NCBI GenBank assembly: GCA_032718475.1
Contig: JAUCBJ010001582.1
Span: 62,001-126,000, forward strand
Length of the DNA: 64,000 nt
DNA from: Nemertoderma westbladi
Taxonomy: Eukaryota > Animalia > Xenacoelomorpha
Reading direction: 5' to 3'
The notes under the pieces are model-generated. The model saw only the letters and a list, made by a program, of their open reading frames with translations. It ran no database searches and was not told the DNA's origin. The position numbers were made by a program, and so were the translations under genes. The first letter of the stretch is position 1, and every line of letters begins with the position of its first letter. This document shows, piece by piece, positions 33,294 to 63,370 of the stretch.

Positions 33294-36200
33294 TTAATAA
33301 ACTACATGTATTTGTACATCGTCTTCCTCATCACTTATATCTAGTGTGCGCACAGGCGCTCGAGTATACCAACCTATCGGAGTTCGACAAGCATATGCAT
33401 TTCTTGCTACGACTACCAATGGTCTGGTTTCCCACACTTGATGTAAGTTGAATTGGTCTGTCCCGATCAGCATTGCTACCGACCGATAATTAACAGGACA
33501 TTCAGGTACACCAAGGTGTCTGAAATACTTACGGTCCTCTAAGGATTGTTCCGGCACTGGACCCAGTAAATTACTAAAGTCCTTTGTGGCTGCAAAAGTC
33601 AAATCCTTAAAGGGTAACAAAGACCTCTCCTTTTCGCTATGTTGCGATTTCGGAAGAAGAGTGTCTAAGTTTAACTTAACTCGTGTCACTGGTATTGCAC
33701 GTTGGCCATGCATACTACTTACGGTATATCGGACGTGCTTACCTTGTCGAAGATCTGTCACGACATCAGCTATCTTCTCGCCCACATAGCTGTGGGATGA
33801 GGCTGAATCTAGGATAGCGTAGATCCTCTTGCTCCCTTTGGTGCCAGTAATCTTAATAGGAATTACGCTGAATCCTTTTAGTTGGTCAGGCGTCAGAAGC
33901 GCAATCGATGGTTGTTCGTCTCCGTCTGAGTATATGTCATCGTCTTCGTATTCTTCATCAGAAGACCCAGACTGCTCTGGGAAACAATCCCGTATATGTG
34001 TCACAAAAGTTGGTGTTGTTCTCGATTCTCGATTCTTATATGCCGTGTTACATTTCACTGCAGCTTCCGGGTGTTCCCTGATGAAGCGTTTGGTCGGCGT
34101 ATGGCTGTCTGTATGGAGCAAACCGTCGTGGTTGCGTCCACAGGAAGGACAGGTGTCCGTATTTGGGCAATCCTTTCGAACATGTCCGTGTTGCGTACAC
34201 CGCCAACAAGAGTCCAATGGCCATATCTGCAGCCGTCGTTCTTCCGAGTTTAACTCGTGAAACAGCCGACAACCTTTTAACTTGTGAGTAGTATGCCGCT
34301 TGCCTAGCTGCTCGCAGTATTGGCAACCGCTAAAGTCTGCACTCAGTTGTTGTCTGGTCTGTTTGATCCCAATAGGTGCGGATACTTTACTACCGTCCGA
34401 AAATCTTCGAGTTTCCGTCGGTGTGGCGTAAGTGGCCGTCTTGGTGGATGTCGTCGGTTGTTTTTGTCGGTTGTAGGATGGTAAGGAGATTCCTTCTGCT
34501 ACGATGTGTTGGTCAGTGTAGTTGGATCGAGTCTCTACTACTGCTTACCTGGATATTAGCAGGTACACGTCCTCCAACTTCAAAAATCCACCTCGTTCTT
34601 CCCGCTGGTACTCGATCTTCCTCCACTCCCGACGAAGTCGATGGTGGAGTCTTCCTATGATCATTAATAGGACTGTAGGGGTGTTCCCGTAGTCCAGTTG
34701 TCCAATAGATTTTAATGTAGTAATAGCGTTTTTAATTTCGTCAGCCAGTTTTAGTAAGTCGACGGGTTTGGTAATAGCCCCCCCCCCCCCTTACAAAGTT
34801 CCTCTATCACTGACTTGGCCATGCTGACTGTACCTCCGTAGATTGAAGTTAAGCGATCGTATGCTAACTCGAAGGCATCTGGTACACCAACGAAAGTTTC
34901 TGCTAAACGCTTGGGTTCTCCCGTCAATGTTTGAAGCAGGTAGTTGAACTTTTCCCTTGATGTAAAAGCGCACGCCGCAATTTGAGATTCAATGTAGTCT
35001 ATGAACGTGTGCCAATGCTTGGAGTTTCCGGAGAACTTAGGTGGTTGTTACGCCGGTAGTCCTTGTCTGGCTGCGTATTTAGCTATCTCCTCAGCTACGT
35101 TCAAAGTTTCGCGTCCTTGGTTGGCAATCGAGTTGATGTTTTCCCGTCTTGGCGCTTTCCTTTGATACGAGGTGTTTCTTGAAGGTCGCTCCCTTTGTTG
35201 AATCTTCGGGTGTCTAGAGTGTTCGAATTCAGTATTTCGCGAACTATCGGTTTGAGTTTCCTCTAAACGTTCCTCAATCTGGGCCAACTTGTTGACAACT
35301 GGTCGCATTAGGTCGGCGAATTGTTGCGTGCTAATCGCGTTCGTAGGTTGTAACGCTTTCTGTGTTGGTGTATTTTGTGGAGGATTGTCTATAAAGGAAT
35401 TGTCTGAACGCTCGCGTTTGCATTCATCGGCCGCTCCTGTTCTAAACACTTCGCGTTCCGGGTAATCCGATTCACTTGAAGTACTACTATCACCTGGATA
35501 TGGTGGCCGACGTGCTCACGTCCGTTGGGTTGTCCGGATTCTAACATTCCGTTTCGGAACATCGTCTACTGGTCTCCGTTGTTCGGTAGGCTCGCAGGTC
35601 TTCCTCGAAGTCGTAGATTGCGATGTAAACTGGTTAAGCGGTCGCGTATCCACTGGTCTCCGTTGTTCGGTAGGCTCGCAGGTCTTCCTCGAAGTCGTAG
35701 ATTGCGATGTAAACTGGATTTGTGGTCGTGTTTTGGCGTTTGAGTCTAACGGCCTTGGAGGTCTAAACACGATTGGGTTTGCGTAGTGTGTCACAGGTTT
35801 GGGTGTCGAAGGTTGACTCACCTGTTTAGTCGTCATTAATGTAGGTCCGACTAATAAACTACTACAATCCGTTATTGGCGGATTACTTACCTTGACCTTT
35901 GGAATAGGCGATGACGTTGCTCTTGGCGGTATAAACATGTCCGAAATAACAAACCTGTGCTCCGTCGCATCATGGATAGGAGAAATATTACTACTACCCG
36001 CAATCGAAACAGGTTTTTTGGTCGTAATTGGTGCAAACATAGGAGTTACTTGAGGGAATCGTTGACATAAGTCTTTAACCAATTCTCTTCCTCGCTCAGG
36101 TGCTCCTACACTTCCTTCCGTTATTCGTTCCTGAATTTGGCGGTGCCTTACCTCTATCCGGTCTAGATCATGTCTGTCTCGAGATCTCATCGATCGATCG

Positions 36201-37558
36201 CGGGCTTGTAGATCCAGATCTTCCTTAGCGTTGGCTAATTCCCTCGCCTTCTTTTCGAGTTCGAAATGAAGTTTAACTTCCTTCTCGCGTTGTTCCGTCT
36301 GTTGTTGTTGTGCCTCGAACTCCGCTACTCGTATAGCTGATTGAGCCTTTATTTGTCATTTTTTCAACTCAGCTCTCGCTTCCGAAACTCGCTTGTGTTC
36401 TTCCAACTCCGCTGCTCGTCGCTCCAACTCAGCTGCTGCTGCTCGTCGTTCCAACTCAGCTGCTGCCGCTTGTCGTTCCAACTCAGCTGCTGCCGCTTGT
36501 CGTTCCAACTCAGCTGCTGCCGCTTGTTGCGCTAACTCAGCTGCCGCTGTTCGCCGTGCTATTTCTAGCTCTAACCTTTCCATCTCAGCCGCTTCCAGTT
36601 CGGCTGCTTCTTGTAAATGAGAAATCCTTGCGACATTTGCGACGCGTAGTTTCTCTTCCTCTACAGCTGCTTGTACAGTTAATAATTGAGTTTGTTCCTC
36701 AATTTCTCGTTGTTGTCTGTAGTACTGTTGTTGCTGTCGAGAAATCTCTGACTTCACTATACTTACCTCGCCAATTTCGCTGCGAATACTCACCAATGAT
36801 TGATCCATTATGCCCGGTGCCGGTTCGATTTGTACGGGTGAAGTTTCCCTCGTATATTCCGGCACGGTTTCCAAATCTCCAACGTCTTCGCCGCACATAC
36901 GTAAGTGATCTGTCAGATGTTTCAATTGTCCATCTAGTCTATACAGTTCCTGTTCTTCCTCGGGCTGTAATAACTCGTCAGAAACCGACTCACCTAGCAA
37001 CTGGTCCGCTTGTTCCTGTTGTATCTGTCTAACGGTCGTCTTAAACTGAATCAGTTTCTCTCTAGCAATCATTAATTTCTCGAGGATTCTAAACTGTGTG
37101 TCCATATCCTGTCTCTGTCTAGCTAGATCTTGTAGACCAATTAGATTATCTACGGACTTATGTACTTTACTCTCTACTCTTACCTGTAGGGTGTAGAACT
37201 CAAACCGAGACATCGGAGCGGTCAACTCGTCTAATATGCGTTGACCTTCTCCAATACTCCTGGTAATATGCGCCATGTATCCTCTGACGCTTCTAACTAC
37301 GCTCTCTTGGCTTCCTACTGAACTTACCATGTCCGTTTCCCTATGTCTAGGTTGCGGGACCGTTAGAAAATCCTCAGTCCTGCCGTCGCCTCGTACTACG
37401 GCATCCGGTACTCCCGTTGGATGTACTGGTGACGCGCATGGTGTAGGTTCGGTAGGCTCGCGAGTCTTCCCCTGTGGTTCTTCCGCTACTGACTTATCCG
37501 CGTCACATGAGTCATAGTCGGTAGGTGTATTCTTCGTATAGTCTTGTTTGTCAGTCAT
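33294..37558 (-). pseudogene. Element 1 gag plus protease, broken by stops and frameshifts
   Basis: Coiled-coil (AAAAELERQ)n; CWRCTQHGHVRKDC and CPSCGRNHDGLLH knuckles; AILDSASSHSY protease motif; LIGTD. Confidence 0.85.
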
Positions 37559-39740
37559 TTCGGTAGTTGTAAGTCAAGTAAAGTGAGTGTCAAAGTATCA
37601 AATTTACCGTATTTATATCTAACGGTACTAATTACAGTCATATAAAATTAGCCTACCGGCCGATTTTATAGCCAATGGATAAAATTAGCCTAGCGGCCAA
37701 TTTTACAGCAAATGAATGTCACGGAGTAAGTATATAATAAAATTAGCCTGGCGGCCAATTTTATAACAAATAAATCGGATAACGATATACGTTATCAAAA
37801 GTAAATCAAACACAAATAATTACGGACTAATTCAGCAATAAACAAAGAAATCGTACGGAATGCATAAATACTTGAAACAGTGGAACCCACAATAATTTTA
37901 ACTAATACGGTAATGCCTAACTGATTTATGCAACTTTTCGAACTCACCCCCTCCAATGATTCTCCAGAAAAACAGATTCCCAGATACAAACTGGACGTGA
38001 ACCTTTCCGTTTCCAGCGTTGCGGACGAAGTGCGATTTTCCCAACCAAAGTTGTTGAGTTATCTATCTCCCAAACTTGCTAAACACGGTCTTGCTCTCGT
38101 TACAGTCTAGAAATTAGCTCTGAATCCTGAAAAACAAAAGAGTTAGGTTTTACTTTTACGAAAATTTTGTACCGGTACAATATGGTATTTAAACCCTTTT
38201 AAACACCGGTATTCAATTCCAAATATTTTACACGCGGTTCAAATCAAATTTTATTTCAAAAAATTAGCACTTAGCTAATCAAATACAAATTTTTACCTCA
38301 AAATACAAAATTTTCAAATAACTTTAGTCCTACTGAACCGTAGTTCAGTAAAACACATTCCTACTATTCTAGGAAATATGTTAAATAATACACATTCCTA
38401 CTATTGGAAGAGACGGCAACGTACCCTGCAATATCCTACTGTAAAGTATGTGAATCAAAACATAATCCGACCTTCTCACCAAAACAGTAAACTCTAAGTA
38501 AGCGAATATATTGCAGTATCGGTCTCTTATAACCGGTGAGGCAGAAAACAGTCTACGAACGGACAAACTTCGATAAAACAAAATCCCGCACAGCGAATCC
38601 TAGAATCGGGCTACTCACTGACGGACTAAGGGCGCTCGTATACTTTGCCGCGGTGTGATTTATATGCGGGTGAGAGATAGAGAGGCGCTAGCTAAATGTC
38701 TAACTAGCGGGCAAAATGCAGTACGGACAAAAATTATTTTATATATTTTGAGGTGTAAATAATTTCTAACGCGCGTGTGTATTGATTCTAACGGTCAAAA
38801 TCGGTTTCAGATCCTTCACGTATATAATTACTGGGTCCAGTGTACATTTTACAAATATTCTAATTTTGTAGCTTGTAGGTCCAATACTCACGAATGATAA
38901 GGCTCCTTCCCCTTTTGTGTATTTCCAGGACTCAAATTCAGGCATAAGGTTAATACTACGCCCAGAATTCGGCAATTTAATTTACCAGTTCCCTAATACT
39001 AAGAAGAAATGTGTTAGTTTACTACAGTAGGCGTACAGTTACAAATAGCTGGCCTGGCGTCCTATCTAGAATTTTGGTTGCCAAGGTGGGCACGGCAACT
39101 TCCTAACAGGATGTCGGCGGGGACACGGTAGATGTTAGTATCCCTAATAGCCTTAATTTATTTGCGCCTAGTGATAAACTGCCCTACCGCCTGAACGGTA
39201 CAATCCTAATTCAGGTAAAACACAGTAACCCTTCCTGGCCTACAAGTTCCAACGCAAATGGACACCGTTGTTCTACAAACAGTCACCGACGCACCCATAC
39301 CTAGCAAGAGTTAGGCGTACAGTTTGCTGCACCCTACCAATGTGTATGCTTTGTACCGGTGTGCCTGCGTCCTATCTGTGTACTAGTATCTCTCTGCCTG
39401 ATCTCCTCTCCTTTCCCCCCGTAGGAATGTGAAGGTCTACTGTGGGTTTTCTCTGAATTAAGACAGTACAGTCCCTAGATGTAATTTTTAGCGTACAGCG
39501 TGTCACTACCTCTACCTTCGATCTTTGGTCTTACACTTAGATAGCAAGGCATTGAATGCTGTCTAACCTTTCAGGCGATGGGCGAAGAACTAAGAATGAT
39601 ATTGTGGGTTGTCTCCTCCTACATTCCCCCGATGTTCCCATCTATTGCTGCAGTCCGCTATCTAGCCAGCCATCTGTCCCTCAGTTGGGTTCACCGTGGT
39701 GAAGCATAGTAAAAAACAGATGCAACAAGTATTTCTAACT

Positions 39741-39977
39741 TTTATTACAAAACTAATATACAATAAACTAATGCTAAGATAGAAGAAAGAATAATAAGTG
39801 TATACTCTGGTTTGTGAATAACTAATGAACAAATTGCACCTTTTTATAGCAGATTTGTGCTGCAAACAATCGAGAATATTCCATGAGTTATTTTGGGTTT
39901 TTAAAGATAATCATTGGTCCAGCAAACACGCATGTTACACGACATTGGTTACTATCTAATAACTGCAATCTTATTGG
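39741..39977 (-). promoter_or_regulatory. LTR-like U3-R signals of element 1: three CCAAT boxes, TATAAA, AATAAA
   Basis: Minus-strand CCAAT at 39973, 39944 and 39913; TATAAA 39843-39848; AATAAA 39741-39746; order and orientation fit a 5' LTR. Confidence 0.55.
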
Positions 39978-40044
39978 TTAATCTACTTTGAGCAAATGCA
40001 ATTTAATTCGTAGCGGTTAATTTAAATGAGTTGAAACTTAGCAC

Positions 40045-40128
40045 AAAAAATAATTCACAATTACTAGGATTCGAACTCGATACCTACTACACGAATTTCC
40101 AACGCTTAACCGACTGAGCTACTGAACC
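40045..40128 (-). pseudogene. tRNA-like Pol III unit (pseudo-tRNA or SINE head)
   Basis: A box TAGCTCAGTCGG, B box GTTCGAATCC, downstream T6; acceptor stem does not pair. Confidence 0.6.
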
Positions 40129-40133
40129 ACTTG

Positions 40134-40258
40134 AACAATGTTATACAAATAGATATGGTAAATGCAAATGAGGACTTAATGTAATCTTTATATAAAGTTA
40201 ATTCGAACAAAATAAAATTTTGAAAATCCTCGGCTTTTATGAGGATATAATTCTATAC
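40134..40258. repeat. 125-bp direct repeat, right copy
   Basis: Matches 24766-24890. Confidence 0.85.
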
Positions 40259-44964: not shown

Positions 44965-47005
44965 AGCTTTTGCGGACATAACAAGTCATTTTTCCCCGCA
45001 ATGCGCAGTGTAGGTGCTTTTGCGGACATAACAAGTCATTTTTGCCGCAATGCGCATAATACTCTAAAGGACTGGAGCTCAGATGACGAAATCTGTCAGC
45101 TGATTTCCTGTAGAAGTGGAACCTCTTTGTTCTGCCTATTTAGCCAATCAGAGCGATTTTCACTTTATGTTGTCCAGGAGCCTACGGGAATCCGCGCAAT
45201 GCATTACGGTCTTTGTTTTACTTTTCTGAGCCTCAGAACACCGGCTTGGAATTCTTCTGTGCTTCTGTTTGGAAGTTTCAGACTTTGGCCAAAACATTAG
45301 ATGGCTTTGATTATAAGAACGTAAATCTATTATCATACCACTCCGGTCATATTATTTCATGGAACACTGCATAAGCAACACATACTGACTGTTCACCGCA
45401 TTATTTTACTTCTGTTTACGGTCTGTTATTAATTGTCGTTATATTGATGTATATTGCTGATATATTTGGAGAATACCAATAAATAATCATAAAACCCCCA
45501 ATCTTCTTGATTACTGAAGGTAAGAGGAATCGGTTACCGGTAGCAATTGCGACTTACATTATAGTGGTTTTTTGTGTGAATTAAATGCTATTTCATAATC
45601 CCTACATGTGTCAGTTGCGATCCTCCTTATATATGATCAAATTCAGTGATAGTCGGCAGATCAGTGTGAAGTAGTGTGAAGTCGTGTGACAGATAATAAA
45701 GCATCTCCTAAAGAATGCGCTATTTACGAAACTCTGTGGCCATCTCGTTGTGATTAGTATAAGTCATAACTCTGTTTTATATACTTAAAGCGCCACGTCC
45801 TAAAGGAACTGTTAATATTTCCCCGAAAGTAAATATATTGTCAGAGATTGTACGCGCTTTTGGAAGACCTTTAGCAGTTTAACCTGCCAAAATTTATATG
45901 TCTTTTGGTTTATAAATCGACTCTAGAAGATGACAATATTTAATACCAATAAACACAACATTAGCAGAAGCCAGCCTAGTGCGCGTCCATTCACCCGCTG
46001 GATAATCCCGGGAGACTGGATTCTGAGGGCTTAGATTATTATTGCAGTGAAGCTTACGGTATTGTATTATTCGATTGATCGTTAATAAATAATTTCTGAC
46101 TAATATTATTCACTTTCGGGAAATATTAACAGTTCCTTTAGGACGTGGCGCTCTATCTAGATAGACAGAGATATGACTTACACTAATCACAACGGTAAGT
46201 CGGTAAGGCTTATGATTCACGTATGAGGCGCATTCTTTAGGAAATGCTTAGTTATCAGCCACAATCATGTACGCTACCGGTAACACACAATACTGCTCAC
46301 TAACTTGCCGACCGTCAATGAATTTTATCATATATAAAGAAAATAGCAACAGACCAATGTAGTGCTTATCAAATAGCATTAAATTCAATACACACCACAA
46401 TAATATAAGTCGCAATCGCTATATATAACCCGTCTTTCTAACCTGTAGTGTATCAAGAGAATTGGGAAATTTGGGTTCTTTATAAATGTTCTCCAGATAA
46501 TATTCAATCAACTGATATAAAATATGACAACAGTAAAAACATTAAGACGGTAGGTTAAGATATAATATGAACAGATATGTACAGTGATATATTAAGAATT
46601 GTGCCGCCGATTTGATTTGATATATGAATTGTTGATTTGATAACAGTCATACGCTCTATAATCTTAAGCCTACTAATGTTTCTTTTTAGAGCCGTTGTTT
46701 CTGGCTTAGACAGCAATAACAACAAAGTATCAGTAAAAAACTGTAAGACTGAACAATCCCAGTATCATCGTCTCAAAGCTCCACATCGACAGAGAGAATC
46801 GCTCTGATTGGCTGAAGCCAAACAAAGAACCATGCGTCCAATGGCTGTTTCCATTTAAGCAACCAGCTGTTAGATGTCGTAATCTGAATCATCACGGCTA
46901 AGCTGTGTAAAAGTATTGCCGTATTGCGGGTTTTTTGCCTTACCATGTCCGCTAAAACACGTATATAGAAGAATGACTTTTATGTCCGTTAAAAACACCT
47001 GTAAC
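44965..47005. repeat. About 2-kb imperfect fold-back (diverged arms about 44965-45848 and 46090-47005)
   Basis: Colinear reverse-complement blocks: AGCGCCACGTCCTAAAGGAACTGTTAATATTTCCC (about 45790 / 46118-46152), TTGCGACTTA (45547 / 46406), AGCCAATCAGAGCGATT (45142 / 46797), CGGACATAA (44973 / 46979). Confidence 0.85.
45847..46412. repeat. Long direct repeat, left copy (at least 566 bp)
   Basis: Nearly identical to 63432-64000 (two substitutions and a 3-bp indel seen). Confidence 0.95.
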
Positions 47006-47206: not shown

Positions 47207-49912
47207 TTAGTCTTTCTTGCGCGGACGGCGTTTACGCAGTTTTTTAAAGCTAGCAAGAGTCCTTTTCTCTTTGGGGCGAGCCACTTTACAAGGAGGGCTA
47301 TAACTCCTGGGTGAAGGGTGCAATATGATTGCATCAGAGGGTGTAGGATTATGGTCTGTGTATCCGCCAGTCGAAGTACCGGGTTGATTGACATCGACAT
47401 CAGGTGAGAGGGGTCTAATGGCTTTGAGAGCTCGTTTCAAGACAGCCGCTCTGACGGGTCCTTTACGCGTGGTCTGAACAAGGGCCGTGGGTGGACCATA
47501 GGCGGTCAGAAACTTCCGAGGTTTAATGGTCCTTTCCAACTCGCGTTCGCGGGCTCGGTATTCGTAAGGCCGTCGATATACTTCCTGTAACTCAGGGTGT
47601 GAGTTAACAAACAAGTCTCCATAGTCCGGATCCTGACGGATATAATTGATTAAGTTATAGGAATGAAGGTCGCTAGGATTAACACTCCTGAGAAATTTGC
47701 GTACGAATTTGGTTGAAATACATTCTCCGACGCGCTTTATTAGCTCGTAACTCGATATGCGTGATTTCTGTTCGACCGAGGCGAAGAGATAAGGATGGAA
47801 CGCATAAACTCCTTCATAAGCGCGTCCGGGATAATAGCGATGGCGCGAATCACAATGTAAATCAGCGTTCGCTTCCCAAGCTCTGATGTAACGTAGTGTG
47901 ATCATTTCATCTACGCTTTCCAAGTCGTGATTAAAAGGGCAATCGAAACTGGCATGTCCCTTTAGTTGACAATGGTGACATTGAGTCATAAATTGAGGGC
48001 AAACGGCAAAGATATGCAAGTTATTGAGTCTGCAATATGCGCAATAAATTTCCATAGTTGGTTGTTCTTGGAAATAGGAACAGCGGACGTTGGTATCCAT
48101 GGGCGTATCGTGGTCTCTCGATGCGCATAACCGACAACGTTGCCTAGAAACATATTTGGCATGGCGATAATCGTACGCAGTGAGACACTGTGGACCTTGA
48201 TACCATTCGATGATATAGTCGTTGTCGCTGTTCCGGGGCGTGATAGGCTGAATCTCCTCAGATTCTAGACATATTGGTTCGTCTTCTAAGTGCATAGATG
48301 AGGTGGGCGTGTCTGTCTCCTTGGGTGGACCTATTGTCTGAATTTCTACGACAGAATAACCGGTGGGGATTCGAGGTCTTTGTAGAACAGAGGAGTGCAG
48401 GTTCGATGTACAAATCTCCTGGAAAATGGCGAATCCAGCGCTATCCAACTTCTCTGCAGCTGAGTCTCTTAGGCTGATCTTGGTTAAAGCGCGGTCTTTA
48501 AATTGGCTATCCACGTTGCGGAACGGGGTTAAAAATCGCCGGAAACATTCGAAACGAATGAATTTATTATGTTCATCTAGTTTAGCGAGTTTGGTCCCAA
48601 GTATTAATGGATGGGCGCGTATGGTACGACTGCACACATCGGCTAGCCAACCGGCAAGTGCGGTGTTTTCAAAGATCGTGTATATAGCTAAGGAGGGACG
48701 GAGTGGAACACTCATGAAGCTATACACGGCGCCAGGTGCGGTCAATGGTCCATCAAAGTATAATCGAGAATAATGGTCTCCGTATACTTGTTGATAGTTA
48801 ATGGGATTTCCGACTTTGAAATTCCATCCGTATTCCTGAAAGGCAAGATGCCCGATGGAAGTCCGTTGCACCTTGGTAATGTTGCTAGACGTATTAGCAT
48901 ACATGGTGCGGAAGAAACCTCGACCTTCTGCCCAGGGGGCAATCAGCTGAGTATCAACGAAAGGGTATGGAATGTCCTCCATATTCCGAAAGTCGTTTTG
49001 GAGATCTCCATAAACAGCTGAGCCGATTTTAAGGATTCTTTCGTTGAACAACATCTCGAGTACGGGCTGGGGTAACATCGATCCATCGATGCCCATGGCC
49101 GGTTTGCGTTCGGTGTCAATGACGTAACGCTGCGCGAGTTCGAATTGTCCATGTCGGAGATTCTTTTGTAACTCGGTAAGAGTTTCAAAAGAATAATCAA
49201 TCAAGTCGGAACAAGCTCGAGTAAACATGTGGGTAGAACCAGCTAATCCGCGGATGTGGATCATGCGCGTAGTTCCTAGCTCTCCGACCGGAACGCTACC
49301 TTCATTATCGTAGGTGACAACTCCATACATCTCGATAACATTAAGAGTTTCATTCCACTCCTTGGTGGCGTTCTCTAGGGTCATCCCTACTGGATGCCAC
49401 AAGGTGGCGCATTGGTTAGCGTCAGGGAGATCACTATACTTCATATGCCGAGTGGTATACGTCTCCACAGTTCCATATCTTTGTATTTTCTCTTCTTCAA
49501 ATAATACATCTAGATTCCAATGGACTAATCGAATTTTAATAAATCCATCGAGGTTATAAGGAGTTTCTATATCTTTCTCGATTCGCGAAATGTTATATGG
49601 TTTTCTAAATGAGTTTACTTTTACTAACTGATCCAGATGTTTCTGCAATTGTTCGAGTTCGACAATGTCTAGAGGATTTATTAGTGGTAGAAACTTTAAA
49701 TCATGTGCCGGGTCTTCTGGTTTTACCATATAATATTGAGTCGGATTAACGTAATAAGGGTGGTCTTTAATCCCGTAAAACGAGTTCTGCAAAGGTCTAG
49801 CGCGTATGTTGACATCGTGTACCATACGACGGACAAGATCCGCTCGATTGTCCGGAGGTTCAACGAGTATACCGTCAACACGAGCGGCCTCGATCGGCGG
49901 ACGCTGTAACAT
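47207..49912 (-). CDS. Element 2 accessory ORF, C-terminal part: DEDDy-type exonuclease, CCHC knuckle array, basic tail (901 aa open)
   Basis: VTYDNEG, LPQPVLEMLFNERILKIGSAVYGDL, FVDTQLIA, YTIFE; CRLC..H..C, CAYC..H..CP, CHHCQLKGHASFDCP; KKLRKRRPRKK. Confidence 0.85.
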   Translation of the reverse strand: MLQRPPIEAARVDGILVEPPDNRADLVRRMVHDVNIRARPLQNSFYGIKDHPYYVNPTQYYMVKPEDPAHDLKFLPLINPLDIVELEQLQKHLDQLVKVNSFRKPYNISRIEKDIETPYNLDGFIKIRLVHWNLDVLFEEEKIQRYGTVETYTTRHMKYSDLPDANQCATLWHPVGMTLENATKEWNETLNVIEMYGVVTYDNEGSVPVGELGTTRMIHIRGLAGSTHMFTRACSDLIDYSFETLTELQKNLRHGQFELAQRYVIDTERKPAMGIDGSMLPQPVLEMLFNERILKIGSAVYGDLQNDFRNMEDIPYPFVDTQLIAPWAEGRGFFRTMYANTSSNITKVQRTSIGHLAFQEYGWNFKVGNPINYQQVYGDHYSRLYFDGPLTAPGAVYSFMSVPLRPSLAIYTIFENTALAGWLADVCSRTIRAHPLILGTKLAKLDEHNKFIRFECFRRFLTPFRNVDSQFKDRALTKISLRDSAAEKLDSAGFAIFQEICTSNLHSSVLQRPRIPTGYSVVEIQTIGPPKETDTPTSSMHLEDEPICLESEEIQPITPRNSDNDYIIEWYQGPQCLTAYDYRHAKYVSRQRCRLCASRDHDTPMDTNVRCSYFQEQPTMEIYCAYCRLNNLHIFAVCPQFMTQCHHCQLKGHASFDCPFNHDLESVDEMITLRYIRAWEANADLHCDSRHRYYPGRAYEGVYAFHPYLFASVEQKSRISSYELIKRVGECISTKFVRKFLRSVNPSDLHSYNLINYIRQDPDYGDLFVNSHPELQEVYRRPYEYRARERELERTIKPRKFLTAYGPPTALVQTTRKGPVRAAVLKRALKAIRPLSPDVDVNQPGTSTGGYTDHNPTPSDAIILHPSPRSYSPPCKVARPKEKRTLASFKKLRKRRPRKKD

Positions 49913-51457
49913 AGGGGCGTCAGCGATAAGATTTTGCGATCCTGTACTGATATCAACCGGTTGAGGTTGTATCGTCGCGAAGAGCTTGTCTCATGTGGAA
50001 TCATAGAGGGATGACGAATGGTTTTAGAGTAGAGATCCGTCATGAGGATTTGAGCTTCAGGCTGAGCTAAAGCGGCTTCTTCTCTCTCTTCCAGTTTCGT
50101 ATGTTTCTCCTCGAGTAGAATTTCTTCCGCTTGTCTCTGTAAGCGTTCATCTAAGAATTCTTGGAGAGAATACGTGCGTCCAAGCTCGATGTCTTCCTCG
50201 AGGTTTCGGATTTCTCTATCGAACTGGGGTAAGGCTAACTCCTTCACCGCTTGGACTTGTTGTTGTAATTTACGTTTCTCTAAACAATCTTGTGTTCCCT
50301 TTCCGATTTTCTGTCGAATGGCATCTAAAGCGTTTCTTATAACGCTCTCCTCGACTTCCGTGGCGGGTTGTATCGGGTTTAATCCTGGACGATTGTAAGG
50401 ATCAAAGGGCGATATTAACTGCCCGCGTCCCAATCCGGCTAAGTAGGATGGGCGGATGTCTAACGAACCTACTACCGGAGCACCACCGATTAGTTGTTCG
50501 GGTAACACTAAGTCTTTGAACAGGGAATATAGTTCGGGAGGATCAGTGATACTGTTAGGATCAAGAGTTTGAGGTCTCACTAGGGAATGAGGAGGCCTGA
50601 CCGAGTATTCCAGAACTCTGATCATGGGTTTATTCAGTGATCGTTTAAGACGAGCGATCGTGGGCGGTACGTCGAACAGGTTTCGCTCAAAACTCCCGTA
50701 AGTGTGACGCGTAAAAACTATGTTTGGCGCAACGTCTCCGTGGATGTTTATGTCTTTCAATTTGTTGGTTGGGTCTAGGGCATTCGTCGCAATAATACCA
50801 AAGACGCACATCCTGTAGAGGAAACGCGGGTGATCGTTCTCCAGTTTTGCAGTATTCTTCCATTTGTTCAAAACTGTCTGGGATAACAGGTAGCGGACGA
50901 TCGGCGGTAAGATACATCATAGTGAAATAGAGCCGTTTGAGTTCTACCATAGGGTCGTGATGTATACCTTGAGGATATCGAGTCTCTAAGTTCTGCTGAC
51001 TAGCGACGTTGAGATAGATTTCTCTCAAAAACTCTAAGTATTCGTTGAAGTCGATGCGTTTATCCGGTTCTTCAACGTTTTCTCTTTCCAGTCTATTACG
51101 AATAGAATTTTCGTGATCTATTCTCGGTTTATCGTTACGACTCCGCTGGGTATGATATTTAAATAGAACCATTTCTCTTTCTGTATCTATATCGTCCGTA
51201 TCATGTAAATCGATAGGATGGCCGGTCGTTAGGAAGTCCATATACGTACCATTACGATTCGTATAGCGAGTGGTGAATTTTCGATAGTCCAATTCACGCG
51301 CAAGTTGCTCTTGGGACATCGGCGGTTCGATATAACGACCATCGTACTCCGTAATGGTTGGATCGGCTTCACCGCGTATTAAGCTATCCACAAATGCTTG
51401 CAAAGGTAGAGTATATCGCTCCCTAATACCGAGATCATCTTCTATTAACTCCGTCAT
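49723..51457 (-). pseudogene. Element 2 accessory ORF, N-terminal part (Cys/His domain plus coiled coil), in two overlapping frames
   Basis: DPMVELKRLYFTMMYL..P.P..DSF..M..Y..YYCDEC..RCAKH aligns with element 1 ORF 27707-28327; 51457 and 49912 are in the same frame and the middle piece is shifted. Confidence 0.7.
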
Positions 51458-53087: not shown

Positions 53088-56000
53088 TCACATTTGGGAG
53101 TCCCTAGATGTTTGAGGAATTAGGGAGGTGGTCGTGGGAAGAGTGTCTTGTCTTCCATAGTTTCCAGAGAGTTCTCTGTCTCTTTCCAGTAAACATAAAC
53201 GACCAACTGGGCGGTTGAGTTGTTGCGTCTCAAAGATTATGCCGGGCTTCTTGAAGTTACGCCGCATAACGATGAGTTCTACTGAACGCACTAAACCATC
53301 CTCCGAGATATGGGTCTCGATGATACGACCTGTCTGCCACCGTTTACGTGGGAGGTCTGGATCTACAATAAGTACCATATCTCCGGCGCTGACGTTTTCT
53401 TGCTGCGCAAACCACTTAGTTCGAAGTTGTAGTGTGGGCAGGTAATGTTTCTCGAAATGGTCAGCGAAACGACGGGATAGCAACTGCATAAGTTGCCAAG
53501 TTCGACGGCAGTATTCGTCTCCGTCGGCAATCTCCGATCGTGGGAGCATGGCTACCGGTTTCTTCAGTAGGAAGTGCGCAGGTGTTAGCGCTTCCAGGGA
53601 ATCGGGACTCGATGAGACTGGCATAAGCGGTCTCTCGTTGAGATAGACAGCTATTTCCTCCATTAACGTCCGCAAAAGTTCGTCGGTGAGATACGCACGG
53701 CATGGCACTATAAAGTGAAATGCGGTCTTAACACTTCTAATTAATCTCTCCCAACTTCCTCCCCACCAAGGGGCGTCGGCGGCGTTGAAGGTCCAGCTAG
53801 ACGCTGTTATCTTTAGCTGGTCATCCACCTGTCTTTGGTTCCAGTCCTTTACGTAAGCCTGTATTTCGTTGTTGGCACCAATGAAGTTCGTTCCCTTGTC
53901 CGATCTCATGGTATTACTCGTACCGAAGCGAGCGATCTGTCGTCGTAAACTTAAGACGAAACTGTTGGTAGATAGATCGTTCACCATATCGAGATGGATG
54001 GCTCTGCAAGTCATGCACACGAAGATGACACACCATCTCTTGACTATAGTCCTCGCACGATATACTTCAATAGGGCCAAATAAATCTACACCAGTATTAG
54101 TAAAAGGTGGTTCATAGAAGCTTACTCGTTCCCTAGGTAATTCTGCCTCTCGCTGTGTTAAAGGCCTACTGAATGCTTTCCTACAGGGTATGCAGTTCCT
54201 AAGAACTTGGTTCAGAGCTCTACGGGGTTTATCAAAATAATAGCGAGTTCGAATTTCGCTAAGAACTCGTTCTCTTCCAGCATGATAAAGCTTACTGTGA
54301 ACATCTACAATCATCTTGATTTGTACTTCAAGATTTCTAATGAGTATGGGGAATTTAGTGTCAAAGGATAAGGGTGCATTGGTGAGCCTTCCTCCAACAC
54401 GTATTAACCCATCTATCATTGTGCTAGAGAATCGATCCCTTAAGCGCATCTGCGGATTTCTCAACAACAGGAAATACTTTTCGGAATCCTCATAGCATTG
54501 CAGGAGTCTCAGTATCTGTTTATTGGTCTCTTCATGCTCCTGGTGACTAATTTTCTCCTTTAGAAAACTGTCAGATACCTTATATTTAGGTAAGTTTTTA
54601 ATAACATGAACTTGTGCAGATGTCAATGGAGCGTTATCACTAGTGGTCTTCGCCCTGGAGTATTGATGATGAAAGCATCTCTTTAAATATGTGACGGCTT
54701 TACAGAGCCCATTCCAGGAACTGTAGTGATGCATCGCTCTCTGCAGCAGGGGTGAGATTCCTTGCGAGACGTCTGGTATTCCAGATTTCCAATCTCTATC
54801 TCGAATTTCCGCAACAGACTTATTTATAGCGAGGGATTGTGGATCCAAGTCATCGTTTCCGGAAACATGTAATACAGATAGATCGATAGTCGGTTTAAAT
54901 AACTTCGATTTACTCGCCCGGGTTTTAGGTTTGACGGTCTCCGCTCCCTTGGCTTGTCTAATTTCCGCCGTAGTAAGGTGAGGAGGCCATTCGTCCTCTT
55001 CCTTGCTCAGGAAGTCGGGTCCACCCAACCAATCTGGAGTATCTATCAGTTCTTATGGAGTTGCTCCCCTGGAGGCGATATCGGCTGGATTAATCGTACC
55101 AGGGCAATGTCTCCATTGATCTATCTTTGTGCGACTAAGAATAATAGCTACCCTGTTAGTAACAAAAACGCTGAACTGACAGACTTCATTGGTTAGATAT
55201 TCCAACACGAGTAAAGCGTCGGTCCAATAAACCGTTTTCTCCAGTGGGTAATCGATTTGTTCCGTTACGTTCCGGCCGATGGCTGTAGCGTATAAAGCCG
55301 CTTTTAACTCCGCTCGAGGAACCTTTAACTTGTTGTTAATCAGTGCCTTAGAGGTAACCAAGGCGACTTTGATCCCATCCGGAGTTTCGACTCGCAGATA
55401 TGCTACTATACCTATTCCCATGTCGCTGGCGTCTCCAAACACATGGAGTTGATAGGAATACGTCGGAAGAACATGTCCAAAATATGCACGGGAAATTATA
55501 AAGTTCTCGATGGCAGGTAGAGAATCTTCCCATTTCATCCATTTCTTCAACAGTTCTCCCTTAAGCGGATCATCCCATGAGTGGTTTTCAAGCCACATCT
55601 GTTGTACTAAACTCCGAGCAATCAATATAACTGGGCTAATAAATCCCAATGGGTCGAAATAAGTGCTCAGGATACTTAAACAAATCCGTTTGGTCCTGAC
55701 TGGATTATCTCGCTGTTTTAACTGAAAAAACAGGATGTCTCTTTCAGTGTCCCACTTCAAGCCTAGCGTCTTGGTTTCAGGAAGATCGTCCTTTATTAAG
55801 TCTAGGTCTTTCGCTCCGCGATCCTCTACCGGTATGGCTTCCAGAAACTCACGGGAGTTACTAGTGAATTTCGTCAGTCGAAATCCACCTCTTTTCAAAC
55901 ACTCTACCGTTCCTTTCGCGACAGCTATGGCTTCTTCTACTGATGGAAGGGACCTTAAATTGTCGTCCATGTATATATTGCGTTTTATGTTGTCTATCAC

Positions 56001-57377
56001 TTCTTTGGAGAAGGAGTCTCGGTTGTCATTCGCAGTGGTTCGCACCACGGAGCAGGCGTTGGAAGGGCTAGATATGATCCCAAAAGCCTGGATGGTCATC
56101 CAGTACTCCACCGGTTTCTGGTTGAGGTCTCCTTCAGGCCACCACAGAAATCTCAGGCTGTCTCTATCTCTCTCCAGCGCCTTGACTTGTAAGAACATTC
56201 CTTCGATATCGGAAGCGAACGCGATGGAATATTGTCTTAATCTTAAAAGTATTCCCAATAAAGATTGGAGTAAATTGGGTCCTGGTAACAACTCGGAATT
56301 AAGGGATTGGCCCATATATAGAGCAGAGCCATCGAATACGACTCGTACTTCATGGGGCTTACCGGGTTTGGGAACGTAATGATGTGTTAAGTAATACGTT
56401 CTCTCAGTCACTGGTGTTCCTTCCGGTACTCGCTCCGCGTATCCCTTTGTTATAAATTTCTTCAGCTGAGTTTGGTACATTTCTTTCGCTGAAGCATTAT
56501 CTGTAAGGCGTCGATGTAATTGAGCGATTCTTTTCTCGGCCAAGGGTCTGTTATTTATAAATCTAGGTTCTTGTTTTCGAAATGGCAGGCAGATTTCATA
56601 CCTACCTTGGTCTTTTAAAAAACGTGTAGTTGTTTCCTGGATTTGCTTGGCTCTTTCTTCTTCTATCGATAGAGCCTTATCATACGAATTGGGCTCTACA
56701 AGTTCCTGAGTAAAGAATCGTACGGCTAGTTCGTCCCGAGTTCTAGCGTTGCAGCGCTCTATCTCATCGTTGAGTTCATCATTGTAAGTGATGGGTTCCG
56801 ATGGGTGAATCAGTTGACATAGGTTCACCTGATCTTTCCAAGTTTGGTTTTCTGTAAGTAAGTCTATGGTGTTCTCCTCATCGAAGAGTTGATAAGTGTA
56901 ATCGTTATCTGAGGAGTATGGTGTTCCCTCAGTTAGTTCGTCCACCTCACTGCTCTCCTCGCTCCAATCGCTCACATGATCTACTCGTTCTTGTGGCATT
57001 CTCTCTTCGAGAGTCCTGCGGGAAGGGCCAGTAAAGTACCAACCTACTCTAGTTCTTACCGCATAGGTTTGCAGTGGCTGCGGTTGAGCAGGTCGTTTCT
57101 CTAATGTTTCAAGCGCCTCATGCGCGTTTTGGCCGATAAGGATTTGCACTCCAGGATAATCTGTCTGGAACCGAGGTATCTTAAGATGTTGGATGCTCTC
57201 ATCTTCGTCCCAATTATAAAGGTCTGCTTGAGTAGTAGCGAAGTTCTTTATAGCCACCATTTTTACCGACCTTATACCTTGTGTTCCTAACTTATCCTGG
57301 GGAGTGGACAACACACCTACGTAGTAATCTGCCGTTAGGGTAGATTTCCAAACCTGCATAATTCCTGACATATTCAA
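53088..57377 (-). pseudogene. Element 2 pol: protease C-half, RT, RNase H, integrase (break at about 55050)
   Basis: YYLTHH, RVVFDGS, DIEGMFLQV, IYMDD, FDPLG, HVFGDAS, PRAELKA, NPADIASRG, GLIRVGGRL, GVDLFGP, SDKGTNF, WWGGSWER. Confidence 0.93.
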
Positions 57378-57425
57378 TTTTGTCCGGAATTTGGGTTGTC
57401 CAGCAAAGATGTCTTCGGCTAATTC

Positions 57426-60400
57426 TTAATCTATGAATGTTCCTGTGCTGCTGGAATCAAGGAGTGCGTTCACTATGTAACTGTGGTGAGTACCATGAAT
57501 TCTTACTTGCACTACAGGAAATTCTCTGATTCCTACGTTGGAAGTTGGCGTTTTCCAAGATGGTTGTTTGGCAAAAGTAGTTAGGGGAAACTCATTGTTG
57601 GTGTCCTTTTCATAAGTAAGTGCTCGATACACGGAGGTATTGATTAGATAACAGGATTCGTTGGCGTCGGAGAATTCGTCAGTATAGAATCCTTCCATCT
57701 CAGACTCCTGATCAGTGTCGTTTACATCACTGAATTGGACATGTAGTTCGGACTCACTTACCTGACTCTGCTTGTCTCGTTCGAACTCACTATGTAACAA
57801 GATGTGATGTTTCGCACCACACTTTTCACACTTTATGTCGGAGTAACAGGTTCGCCGTTGGTGTCCTGGTCTGAGGCAATTATAGCATAACCGCTTGTCC
57901 CACACAACTGTACGTCTGTCTACAAGGGATTTCTTTAGAAATTCCGCACACGCACTCAAACGGTGGGTCCCGTCGCACAGCGCACAGTTAGGTTTTATGT
58001 TACTTACTTTACCTTGGGTAATCTGATGCACTCTCGTTCTTTCTTCGGGCTTTCTTCCGCGCATTCTGCTAGGAGACTGAGGAGGGGTCTTAGCAACCTG
58101 TTCTCTCCTATTGTTGGTTTGAGCCTTGTATTTACTTACGTCCTTGGAGGTTTTGTCAACATAGTAAGATCGTTCGGTGTCTTTCCCGCTGTCTTCTTCT
58201 TGAGAAGCTTGGCTTTCGCCGTCGTCAGTGTAACACACCGGTGTTACTCTTCTCCTAGAAGCGGGTTTCTCACTTACCTTATTTTCCGATGTTTTCTCTC
58301 TGGACTGCTTGATGAGTTGTAGTTTTACCTCACCATCTAAGAAGGACATGAGATCAGCCATGGTAGGACTTCGTCATTGTTGTTCATTCATGTACAACAC
58401 TTTCTTGTCCCAGCGTGTACATACTCCACCCTTTGGTAAAGTAGAGACTACTGCTCCAATAACCATGGAACTCTGATATTCATGAGACTTACCTAACCAG
58501 TCCAGTTGTCTACAGATTTCCTGAATTTCATCCGAAAACTCTATAATCCCGCTACTAAGGAAGTGTCGAGGGGCTACTAATTTCGCATACAAATACTTAG
58601 CTATGTTGTCCTTGTTACCATACCTGATGTTTAATGTATCCCAAACTTGTCTTAATCCTTCTGGATGTCCAATAAACTTTAACGCCATTAACTTGGGAGG
58701 TCCTTCCAAGCACTTGATGAGGAACCTAAGTTTCTCTCCGTTAGATAGCACAGAGTTCTGTATGCTGTCTTTGTAATATTCGTTGAAAGGTAACCATTTC
58801 ATTTCGTCTCCATTGAATTTGACGATCTCTCCCACTTTGACCGCTTGGCGGGCTTCTGTTCTAGCCATCTGCCGCGTAAAGCTTTCTTGGGCCATCGTGT
58901 TATTTAATATAGAATTATCGGCATATAAATTTCTTGGATCATTATCAGGTCTATAGGGAATATCATTAATAACAGGTCTATAATCACCCTTAATAGGGTT
59001 TGTTATAGGAGTTTCAACTTCACTAGCAGTATAGATGCGTGTAGGCTCCACACCTTGCGCATGTAATACTTCAGACCTAACAGGTTGACACAATGTTACA
59101 GGGGGTATTGGTATGCCCTTTTGTATATTGACTAATTTATCGCGTTCTAGTGCGATACTTTGCTGCACTTCTTGTAATTCTGCCCTACTTTCCCTTACTG
59201 TTCCCTTAAGCTGGTGGACAGTCTCCTGCATCTGTCTGAGCAGGAGGTTCATCCCCCGCCGTCCCTCCTCTACCCACTCAACCGCCGAAGCGGGAGTCGC
59301 CAACATTGTAGCGGGTTGATGCGGGACGACGGGAGACAAATCTTTGCTTCCTCTCCCAATGCTCAGGACAGGGGTATTTGCATGGACTGTTCCACCGGGT
59401 ACAGGCAGTGTGGTACTATGTAAAGGGAATTTAGAGTTAAGCTCTGGAAGTGCAGGGGTCTCTAGCACAGAAGTGACTTTGGGAACGACAGGCCTAATTA
59501 TTTCAGGTTCATCGACTATAGTAGGGAGTCTTTTGACCTGGATAAATTGTTCTATGGGTTCTGCACTACCTAAGTCTGTGCTAGTTAGTTGTCTTTTAAC
59601 AGCTGGGGGCAAATCAGGCAATTTGTGACGGTAAGATGTTTTTCTACGCCTGCTTAGACGAGATCTATTTCCTCCGCCTTCAGGATCGGTGGTTTCGCTT
59701 TCCTCCGATGAAGTATAGCCCTAGCGTTTGGGAGTAGATTTTCTCATCATTTGCATGTGACTAGCAGTTAACTGTTTATTTATGTTGTCTTGCGTCTCTT
59801 GCAGCCTCTCCAACTCCAGTTGGGTAGTCTGCTCAGACGCTCTCCGTTCTGCTTCCGCTACTGCCTTTTCCGCCCTTGCTTCTGTTTCTGCCATGGCCGC
59901 CTTTGCTTCTGCCGCCGCCGCCTTTCTTTGTATTTCTGCTTCTGCCATGGCTGCCTTTCTTTGTATTTCTGCTTCTGCCCTTGCCGCTGCCTCCTTTCTT
60001 TCTGCTTCGGCTTCTGCGATTGCCGCTGCCCTTTGGTCCTCTATCCTCCTTTTCTTTACTCGTTCTTCTTGAACTCTAGTGAGGCGGAGTTTTTCATCAA
60101 ATTCAGCTTGATTAGCCGCCAACATTTCAGCGTCGATTGAGTCTAACACCCGCTGGGTTCCTTCCCTATTAGGGGAAAGTCCAGACAGTCGTCTCCTCAA
60201 CTCTTCGTCTCCTAGGAATCGCTGATAGTCGGATAGGTAAATGTCGATGGCGTCTCTCGTTCGTGGTCTTTCTGCAGTCTCTTCGCTTTCCACTTTAGAA
60301 AGGGTGGCATCGGTTGGTTTTTCATAAGTTAGTCTCTCAGACAGCTGGGATTTCCACTGGTCCGTTTCTTGCACTTTGCGACCTACCCTCTGGAACCAAG

Positions 60401-61224
60401 TCTTAACAGAAACCTGCAGCGACGTGTCCTGTCTTCTTTTGGAAGTTTCCTCAAAGGCTGACAGAATTAGTCTAATGCGTAGGGTTCTTTCGCGCACTTG
60501 ATATAGCAGCTCTTCCTGCAGAACAACTGTTTCGACAACCCCAAGGACCTCAACCTTGGGGTTGTCGAAACAGTTGTTCTTCTAATCGCTCTAATGAGCC
60601 GAAGAACCCTTGCACATATCCTGCTGCCGACCTCTTCCAAACAGCTGGATCCATTGTATCTTTAGTCACTCCCATCCGATGTATATCTTCCCAAGTAGCT
60701 TCGGACAGATCTAACGGGAGTCCAGGTCCGGGAAAGTTCCATTGTGACTCGACAATAGACATCAATTCTTCCCTGGCGTATCCCGCATAATTATCTTGGG
60801 TCGCTTTCTTATTCCTCGCCCAATCTGCTTGATGTTCCACCGCAATCAGTATAGTGGTTAGCACTGCGGCAGGAAGGGTGAGAAGAGGGTCCGAGTAGGC
60901 TGTAGCCGCCATCTGCAATCCGCGTTCGGGGGTCAGCTCGACAGTATCCGAACTACTGGAGCTATCGGATCGCTGGGAACTAGGTTCTTGACCAAGATGT
61001 TGCTGCGATAGGACAGCTGCCTCTTGGTTCCGTTTGACCTGGGCCCGAGTACCTATGATGGACCTATGGTGGATTAGCCTAGGGTCTGATACTACTGGAG
61101 GGATGACCTTTCTTGCAGTAGGAGGTGAACTGAACTCCTTTCTTAATCGCTCTACACTCCTATCTGTGTCACAGATGGTTGTATCGATTAGACTGTCTGA
61201 CAGGTTTTGCTGAGTGTCAGACAT
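57426..61224 (-). pseudogene. Element 2 gag plus protease N-half, broken into four ORFs
   Basis: Ala/Glu coiled-coil repeats; KFNGDEMKWLPF..EKLRFL..RYGN capsid-like segment; three BEL-type knuckles CALC..H, CYNC..GH..C, CEKC..HHILLH; ALLDSSSTGTFI. Confidence 0.88.
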
Positions 61225-62544
61225 GTTTAGCTATACAGTTGAATGCTTACTGCTATAGTTACAGTTAAAGCAAGTCCAGTAATTCAGTATGACCGTTGGC
61301 CTAGTACCGGTAATTTATTGCAGTATATTAGAATACCGGTATACACTTATAGTATATATAAGTATTGTAAACTAGGTTTGTCACAGAGTACCGGTATATA
61401 AATTTAGCACAAATATATATAAATATATAATAGGCTTATCGTGAATACCGGTATACAGCTTACACTTATAGTATATATAAGTATAATTATGAACTAGAAT
61501 TAATTACAGAGTACCGGTATGATTTCAGCTCAAATTTATAGGAATAAATATAATAAGCCTATGGTAAATACCGGTATGTCAATTATTTTAGAATAATCGA
61601 ACCTCTGAATATTTAGGTTACTTGGTTACTCTAACTTACTTTGTTACCGTTATTTAAGCAGTAGTCCAACTGATTTTGAGACCTAGTTGTTGTATGGCAG
61701 GCCTACTACTTATAAATCGTTTGAGTTGATTTATAATATATATATATACCCGTTTAAAAGGGTTATGTCAATATTTGAAATAAATGTTATTATTTCTGGG
61801 GGGTCACTACACAGAAGCTGTGCGCTCTCAGTGAAGTGCTATTTATGGGACACTAAAACTGATAATTCTAATTTACCTAAGTTACTTAATACTACAAATT
61901 ACTTACGATACGGGTGAGATTAAATCTCTAGTTAAACACAACAAAAATATTACGTACGAATTTTTAGGGTAATTTTACAGGAAGTCTACAAACCAGCCTA
62001 ACAAAGGGTTAGAATTCTGGACAGGGTACTACGGTATTTGAAAATAATAAGTAGTAGTAAATATACTGTACTGTCCAGATAGGAAAATACCACCGCCTGA
62101 CGACCTATAACCGTATCGCTATAGGTACTACGTTATGTATCACGGATTGTTCCTACCCAGAAGTTAATAGAGCTAACGAATGTGCCTATCAACCACTTTA
62201 CAACACAAATATACTGCCTACACACTAATTACTTCGGAAAGCACTGTACACTAAACCCTAAATTAGGTACAAGTACTGGTATAACAAATAATCAGCAGTT
62301 AAATATACTTGAACAGTTAAAAGAACCACGGCATCTGCTGGAGTGACCGAAGCACAAAGTCACCAGTCTTGTCCTACGCCAAGCAGCCCGTGTAGTACCG
62401 AGGTTAATTTAACTATAACGGTATGTGTAACAAACACAATTACTGTAGGAATAAACTTGGGGACATGAATGTTGCGAATAATCGCATAAACTCTGAATAA
62501 TAAATATTACGCTACCCGTACAGAATACTCAAACAAAATACAAA

Positions 62545-63075
62545 CCAAACGCTGGCAGACTACCACCAAGCCTAAATAAACTACTGTATGTGCAGATTCC
62601 AAAACGGTTAGTTAGTATGCGTTCTAACACGGTAGTACGACTTATTCTTTAAGAGGGGATTGACCTTACAGTTATGACTGCCCCAACTTACTAACTGGCA
62701 CTTTATCAGACAAACTCTACACAAGCAGCAATCTCTTTAGACCTAATAATAGCTAGACAACAATCCAGCCTACAAAATATCTGAGTAATAACTATTACGG
62801 TACCTGAACAGACCACACAAACAAACACAAGCCAAAACGCTGGCAGAATACTGTCAAGCCTAAATAAACTACAGTATGTGCAGATTCCAAAATTGTTAGT
62901 TAGTATGCGTTCTAACACGGTAGTACGACTTATTCTTTAAGAGGGGGTTGACCTTACACTCAAGTTGCCCCAACTTACTAACTGGCACTCTATCGGACAA
63001 ACTCCACACACGCCGTAATCTCTCCAAACCCAACAACAATCCGACAACAGTCTGGCCTACAGTTATCTGAACAAT
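62545..63075. repeat. Tandem duplication in the element 2 leader, period about 288 bp
   Basis: AAACGCTGGCAGA...TTAGTTAGTATGCGTTCTAACACGGTAGTACGACTTATTCTTTAAGAGGGG occurs twice. Confidence 0.9.
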
Positions 63076-63242
63076 CTGAGCAGACTTACACGTCTTCAGC
63101 TCAATATTTACTTACTAGGAAATAAAACCGACAGAAATAAGTAAAATCTCAGTAAAAACCAGGGTGGCCGTTCCCTGATTAAATACTAAGACCTACCGGT
63201 ATACTATAATCAAATCGAATAATACTAATGTACTTATACTGG

Positions 63243-63370
63243 AAGTACCGGTTAGGACAGTTGGGCCTACGGACCTACAGAAGTGCCGGTTCTGGCAGTT
63301 GGACCTACGGACCTACAGCAGTACCGGTTCTGGCAGTTGGGCCTACTGACCTACAGAAGTACCGGTTCAG
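63243..63370. repeat. 37-38-bp tandem repeat, about 3.3 copies
   Basis: AGTACCGGTTCTGGCAGTTGGRCCTACGGACCTACAG. Confidence 0.85.

Follow-up and report, generated by a model that had tools for sequence, protein, structure and literature searches.

A 64,000-nucleotide stretch of the Nemertoderma westbladi contig JAUCBJ010001582.1 (positions 62,001 to 126,000), referred to here as the window, carries two BEL/Pao retroelements, A and B, both on the minus strand. In each, integrase is followed by a third open reading frame (ORF3) whose core is predicted with high confidence, from three unguided tests based on profiles or on features, to have the DEDDy/PF01612 fold of 3'-5' exonucleases. Homology, the integrase tree and an excess of synonymous differences make it almost as probable that ORF3 is a cargo of this lineage maintained by selection. 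Far more tentatively, and with rather less than even confidence, we propose that the ORF3 product works in trans as an RNA exonuclease that counters the host's small-RNA silencing.

The ORF3 of element B extends on the minus strand from an ATG at 51457 to a stop at 47207, a 1417-codon span divided into three stop-free pieces, and starts 1631 nt past the integrase stop; that of element A (28327-25705) starts 663 nt past the integrase stop. A preliminary description of this DNA, drawn from the sequence alone, had given the coordinates, the strand and a spacing of 0.7-1.6 kb correctly. Its term "giant" suits the ORF of B but not that of A, which has about 874 codons. The two reading frames comprise the following parts.

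47207 to 49990, minus strand: element B ORF3 piece 3, 927 amino acids (aa), stop-free, with linker, exonuclease-like domain, zinc knuckles and basic tail KKLRKRRPRKKD
49993 to 50686, minus strand: element B ORF3 piece 2
50687 to 51457, minus strand: element B ORF3 piece 1, with the N-terminal block common to A (50774-50965)
48596 to 49390, minus strand: element B DEDDy-like domain
47939 to 48136, minus strand: element B, three knuckle-like C-x2-C...H...C motifs (piece 3, aa 619-684)
25705 to 28327, minus strand: element A ORF3, interrupted by an in-frame stop (27707-27709), changing frame near 26130-26200 and ending in a basic tail
27866 to 28063: element A N-terminal block
26243 to 26998: element A exonuclease-like domain

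The protein core common to A and B covers 408 aa at 28% identity (E 1e-37), which bears out the homology proposed in the preliminary description, and every conserved block quoted there was found. An N-terminal block that it did not list spans 68 aa at 40% identity (E 5e-11) and has the pattern LY.TM.YL.A..P.P...D.F..M ... Y.C..C; no family or database homologue of this block was found (0 of 4859 longer proteins). There is no real nucleotide similarity between the two ORF3 copies, the best blastn match being 18 nt, and piece 2 of B has neither a BLASTP match in the A piece 27706-26129 nor a Pfam family. The B knuckles match zf-CCHC_3 at only E 0.058, and a basic tail closes the ORF3 of A, of B and of an outside homologue, P0001, described below. 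The ORF3 pieces contain no transmembrane-like segment, and the predicted product is not env-like because no hydrophobic 19-mer exceeds 1.4 (maximum 19-residue hydropathy, 1.36). Both copies are broken; an alternative genetic code was considered for these frames and rejected, since the internal stops mix TAA, TAG and TGA.

The prediction of a DEDDy-type fold, made already in the preliminary description, was upheld by each of the three unguided tests. When the B domain was compared with the 18,950 models of NCBIfam, two RNase D models alone matched (E 0.0038 and 0.029). Of 30 ESM Atlas matches of B, 24 belonged to the PF01612 set (score 0.92); the three highest-ranked rows are unnamed clusters. 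A hidden Markov model (HMM) built from seven bacterial RNase D proteins ranked B ORF3 first among the window's 1036 stop-free stretches (E 2.6e-4; runner-up, 0.87); bacterial NrnC-like and WRN-like HMMs, run over the same stretches, singled out neither ORF3. Profile-profile comparison by hhalign gave a probability of 84.5% and a score of 43.8 for A, B and P0001 against 28 bacterial PF01612 proteins, compared with 12.9 for a reversed control and at most 19.9 across 39 shuffles; with A and B alone the probability was 68% and the score 38.2 versus 21.2. The ExoII-to-DTQ block is the solid part of this match. The subfamily signals are mixed, ExoII reading K-[IV]-G as in the WRN-like bacterial set, and the next block, P.vDT, as well as the best profile hit being RNase D-like. 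The hhalign probability was 9% against the WRN-like bacterial set and 73% against RNase D, with EXD2 at E 1.3; the labels WRN-like and NrnC-like for the bacterial sets are our own motif reading. No WRN, EXD or Mut-7 subfamily is assignable to the predicted domain, and the earlier label "WRN/EXD/Mut-7-like" was too specific.

A HMMER search of 1.84 billion representatives returned two matches, of which P0001 (648 aa, E 2.5e-7, on a 9.4-kb contig) is the sole real outside homologue found; P0002 was rejected as a repeat protein with 41 matching columns outside the nuclease motifs. P0001 matches B at 29% identity over the core (E 4e-14) and weakly over the knuckles (E 4e-4), and its layout of an exonuclease D-E-D-Y-E, CCHC motifs and a basic tail is that of B. 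Pairwise identity among A, B and P0001 is 26-34%. The Atlas assigns P0001 to a PF01612 plus zf-CCHC cluster (score 0.86), which we regard as a lead only. Other searches added little: a word-indexed search with B aa 90-500 yielded 0 of 2241 candidates, a search with the three-sequence alignment recovered P0001 alone among 7988 scored, nothing useful came from PHROGs, from tblastn of phage and plasmid sequences or from scanning viral and metagenome contigs for patterns, and the ORF3 profile had no match in E. coli.

The residues of the predicted active site lie as follows.

Element B, minus strand: ExoI D 49309 and E 49303; ExoII D 49006; ExoIII Y 48682 and E 48670, the fourth register being less certain
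Element A, minus strand: D 26917, E 26911, D 26647, Y 26332 and E 26320

In an alignment of 27 bacterial members with A, B and P0001, the ExoI D and E, the ExoII K and D, a later K and the ExoIII Y are invariant in all 30 rows. ExoIII is most likely Y-x3-E in A, B and P0001, with E in place of D, a register chosen because P0001 keeps the canonical W-x-K-P-L...Q-L-Y lead-in. The D-x-E and the ExoII D of the preliminary description stand, but its choice of ADxxSRT as ExoIII is rejected, the Y-x3-D column sitting 9-13 residues upstream and the ADxxSRT aspartate ten residues on in the same predicted helix. YGEGD/YGD was also rejected as ExoIII, for its spacing is unequal in A and B, and the position is not acidic in P0001. 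When each protein was aligned singly, D-E-D was recovered in three of three, yet the ExoIII placements of A and B differed; among 24 shuffled controls D-E-D never appeared, and four of the five motif columns did so once (MAFFT). Three of the predicted acids are secure, and the fourth is changed and less certain. The domain is 13-19% identical to PF01612 members and has inserted stretches of about 30-45 residues both behind ExoI and ahead of ExoIII. That it still cuts is somewhat favoured by the kept D-E-D and Y, with E as the fourth acid.

Contigs of four public runs span 30 of 30 bins of element B and 30 of 30 of ORF3 with many variants, from which ORF3 is taken to belong to a multi-copy family. 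Some of these contigs carry small indels at or near both ORF3 frame breaks, a pattern that fits, without proving, breaks specific to a copy or subfamily. Of the 40 best-supported variable sites, 38 lay inside ORF3, and exclusion of four next to a frame break left 34, at which 19 of the 34 family differences were synonymous against an expected fraction of 0.30 (P 0.001). This excess and the conservation of ORF3 in the lineage agree with the selection postulated in the preliminary description.

Sequence comparison confirmed that both elements are BEL/Pao (Belpaoviridae), with integrase downstream of reverse transcriptase (RT)/RNase H. Pfam finds DUF1759 in B and Peptidase_A17 and DUF5641 in both, and the A gag matches the B gag by tblastn. 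The two are divergent, as had been claimed: identity is 42% in RT/RNase H and 43% in integrase. The published Belpaoviridae profile comprises gag, pol and env only, a genome of 4.2-10 kb and a tRNA-Arg or tRNA-Gly primer site (PMC8742986). Like that profile, B has a Gag with DUF1759, a Pao-type pol, integrase after RT, long terminal repeats (LTRs) within the 0.2-1.2 kb range and a polypurine tract, whereas A shows only a 125-bp repeat. Unlike it, B has a nuclease-like ORF3, is at least 18 kb long and shows no tRNA site on inspection, and it lies outside both the size range and the env-like third gene, which are typical traits of the family and not the basis of its classification. Among 81 integrases A and B are sisters (midpoint-rooted FastTree, support 0.997), and the ORF3 profiles scored at none of 79 other BEL loci drawn from the best 80 of 257 matches (best E 0.65; 13 of the loci with 3 kb or more downstream); the simplest reading of this placement and this absence is that ORF3 was acquired once, in the common ancestor of A and B. 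In metagenome BEL loci, nine of 13 long downstream ORFs scanned showed a second same-strand BEL gag 0.6-2.3 kb after integrase (loci L124, L137, L143, L149, L156, L158 and L185, with a pol start too in two cases); these doublets are possibly tandem elements with a common LTR.

We propose that ORF3, in the position of env, is a separate accessory gene encoding a diverged DEDDy 3'-5' exonuclease that would act on single-stranded RNA. Its protein would be made from its own, probably spliced, message; splice-acceptor-like AG sites seen by eye upstream of the A and B start codons (near 28358 and 51713, respectively) lead us to infer such separate expression. The basic tail would carry the protein to the nucleus or to RNA granules, where it may trim or destroy silencing RNAs or their precursors in trans, favouring the element over the host. 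There is a good probability that the substrate is RNA, held where present by the CCHC knuckles as in trypanosome RNase D. Action in the cell is favoured over action in the particle because of the separate ORF3 product, its basic tail and the lack of a membrane anchor, and the proposal as a whole also because unrelated LTR lineages captured 3'-5' nucleases in the same slot, as described in the available text of Rodriguez et al. (2017, PMC5408684). A wider formulation, in which a deep, high-copy, oversized BEL/Pao lineage bears an active D-E-D-E-y RNA exonuclease with zinc knuckles for either silencing suppression or maturation of a self-made primer, is possible though doubtful.

Several observations weigh against the proposed silencing role or the steps leading to it. 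Pfam and PDB sequence searches gave no family or convincing match for the A or B ORF3; PF01612 exceeds its cut-off in neither, and P0001 scores 11.9 bits against a cut-off of 23.6. The domain of A alone was missed by the RNase D HMM (E 18) and by NCBIfam. The modelling check suggested in the preliminary description, AlphaFold with Foldseek, failed unaided, with a predicted local distance difference test (pLDDT) of only 29.6. A guided model reached pLDDT 65 with a confident core and matched DEDDy structures at VIA Z 10-13 (top 13.2, rmsd 4.0 over 178 residues), with many PF01612 members between 13.2 and 10 and no subfamily standing out; Foldseek of this model gave no E of 0.001 or less (best 0.002), and the match is circular because the alignment was padded with 27 bacterial DEDDy proteins, so that it speaks for compatibility and is not independent proof. 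The register of ExoIII differs among the joint, single-sequence and hhalign alignments, and the fourth acid, D in 27 of 27 bacterial rows, is E in A, B and P0001. Element A lacks the CCHC knuckles, which are therefore not essential. The synonymous test draws on the best-supported 40 of 983 sites, and only 13 of the 79 control BEL loci had at least 3 kb of downstream sequence. The small-RNA step itself is argued from analogy.

The strongest rival to the silencing proposal, though an unlikely one, is a DEDDy fold in which catalysis is not needed, an adaptor like Egalitarian or EXD1 that would route, export or shield element RNA as a stand-in for env. The E at the fourth acid in all three proteins, the long insertions and the large non-nuclease part are what such an adaptor might show; the guided model has Egalitarian on I-factor transposon RNA (9rw6) as one of its fold neighbours, and Maelstrom and EXD1 are described, in the available text of Rodriguez et al. 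(2017, PMC5408684), as inactive DEDD derivatives that still bind RNA. However, the ExoI D and E, the ExoII D and the ExoIII Y are kept across proteins only 26-34% identical, and a change of D to E preserves the carboxylate.

Somewhat less likely still is an active nuclease working on the element's own nucleic acid, which would trim the 3' end of the genomic RNA or the tail of an RT primer back to the duplex. Inspection of the sequence after the B 5' LTR revealed no TGG-type tRNA primer-binding site, this copy differing from most family contigs. Instead, the post-LTR bases can pair with the LTR of B itself, exactly over 10 nt or, if one bulge is allowed, over 14 bp at -17.7 kcal/mol (P 0.0125 versus shuffled LTRs), and B is possibly a self-priming BEL element, a hint from a single copy; 3'-end processing is among the roles put forward in the available text on the rotifer elements (Rodriguez et al. 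2017, PMC5408684). Against this, the signal comes from one copy, the same bases can alternatively fold as a local hairpin, one of 84 control 25-mers from the B 5' leader reached a 13-nt match, no similar self-priming match was found in element A, and it is not evident how a separate ORF3 product would enter the particle.

There is little chance that the protein is not of the DEDDy class, or that ORF3 is a neutral passenger. Profile support is weak, most of it coming from a single block of 45 residues, and the MAFFT shuffles could once produce four of five motif columns; but independent tools converge on one fold, D-E-D was absent from all 24 shuffles, and the protein is conserved despite lost DNA similarity and shows the synonymous excess. 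ExoN proofreads in large nidoviruses and DnaQ-type proofreading domains have the same fold, yet proofreading of reverse transcription to permit a 15-18 kb genome, a role the preliminary description had raised for a genome of about 15 kb, found no support and is the least probable reading of all: ORF3 is not fused to pol, and the B frames are broken many times although its LTRs are near-identical. The length of B, at least 18.1 kb against the 4.2-10 kb of Belpaoviridae (PMC8742986), might seem to call for it, but about one quarter of that length is ORF3 itself, and Burro elements of 25-30 kb are described without an exonuclease in the available text of PMC6431247.

Juno and Vesta are rotifer clades of the Ty3/gypsy type. 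The precedent in bdelloid retroelements cited in the preliminary description is sound: the available text of Rodriguez et al. (2017, PMC5408684) describes a DEDDy ORF3, separate after pol and without transmembrane segments, in bdelloid Juno, Vesta and Athena/Terminon, so that a nuclease of this class was already known from this slot. As far as that text goes, the rotifer ORF3 has a reported DEED motif, compared with a fourth acid E here; its LTR hosts are Juno and Vesta, compared with BEL/Pao here; and the present frames are unlike it in their 870-1420 codons, in the N-terminal block common to both and in the CCHC array of B. In TbRND (PDB 7C42), according to the available text of PMC7797062, a CCHC domain boosts RNA binding and cleavage, and its DEDD exonuclease domain precedes tandem CCHC knuckles, the order seen in B and P0001; the Atlas cluster combining CCHC with PF01612, the top match for P0001, is commonest in Euglenozoa. 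TbRND is, on the same partial account, a cellular trimmer of guide RNAs; its sequence has no direct link to either ORF3, and A has no knuckles. The cellular PF01612 set (RNase D, NrnC, WRN, EXD2, Nibbler/Mut-7, EXD1, Egalitarian and Rrp6) has the ExoI D-x-E, ExoII K..D, later K and ExoIII Y found here, whereas the ORF3 proteins differ from it in the ExoIII change of D to E and in the lack of a Pfam call. The available main text of a BEL/Pao survey does not contain the word "exonuclease" (PMC3118150), and our literature search, with Repbase, GyDB, Dfam, most subscription journals and supplements outside its scope, found no DEDD nuclease reported in BEL/Pao and nothing on an ExoIII D-to-E change. 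What is predicted to be new is a DEDDy-like ORF3 in BEL/Pao, its altered fourth acid and the TbRND-like knuckles of one branch. A deeply conserved, selected exonuclease cargo in a second LTR superfamily argues for a general benefit to retroelements, and an unbroken 290-aa domain exists in two divergent versions. Should silencing RNAs be its target, the enzyme would be a transposon-encoded counter to small-RNA defence, of a kind that is, to our knowledge, rare in animals.

Element B spans at least 18.1 kb, from its 3' LTR (about 45847-46428) to a 5' LTR clipped at the window end, and the remaining features of the two elements are these.

45847 to 46428, minus strand: element B 3' LTR, about 580 bp
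about 46429 to 46439, minus strand: purine tract ahead of the element B 3' LTR
45550 to 45849: inverted LTR fragment, 72% similar to the element B LTR, adjoining the far end of the B 3' LTR
53088 to 57425, minus strand: element B pol (RT, RNase H region, integrase), with a stop at 55053
57426 to 61230, minus strand: element B gag region (DUF1759, weak zinc knuckle), interrupted by stops and a frame change
63428 to 64000, minus strand: element B 5' LTR, clipped where the window ends; 99.1% identity with the 3' copy
63408 to 63417, minus strand: 10 nt complementary to B's own LTR (63633-63624), a possible self-priming site
28990 to 37573, minus strand: element A gag-pol (BEL/Pao), with several stops
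24766 to 24890, minus strand: 125-bp direct repeat bounding element A, 96% to 40134-40258

The insertion of B is judged recent because its LTR copies are 99.1% identical across 569 bp. The inverted fragment abutting the 3' LTR suggests that B landed in a related element of opposite orientation, and near-identical LTRs flanking broken frames (four stops and one frame change in gag and pol together) suggest a defective copy mobilised in trans. Element A extends about 15.5 kb between its 125-bp repeats, which are possibly the remnant of an LTR, a status that is uncertain. The 5' leaders are long in both elements (B, 61230-63400; A, 37573-40130; 2.2-2.5 kb), that of B having internal repeats by eye. 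Directly inside the A 5' repeat, at 40060-40130 on the minus strand, two motifs seen by eye resemble the A-box and B-box of RNA polymerase III; neither ARAGORN nor Rfam called a tRNA at this tRNA-like stretch (about 40130-40060), which is possibly a tRNA-derived SINE (short interspersed nuclear element) head or part of the leader.

Elsewhere in the window, RVT_1 fragments at 797-1372 (plus strand) and 2198-3067 (minus strand) probably belong to other retroelements. Coding pieces with RRM domains at 4477-5451 and 9566-10012 (minus strand) probably represent exons of a gene for a host RNA-binding protein and lie among minisatellite arrays of 11, 49, 51, 31 and 26 nt.

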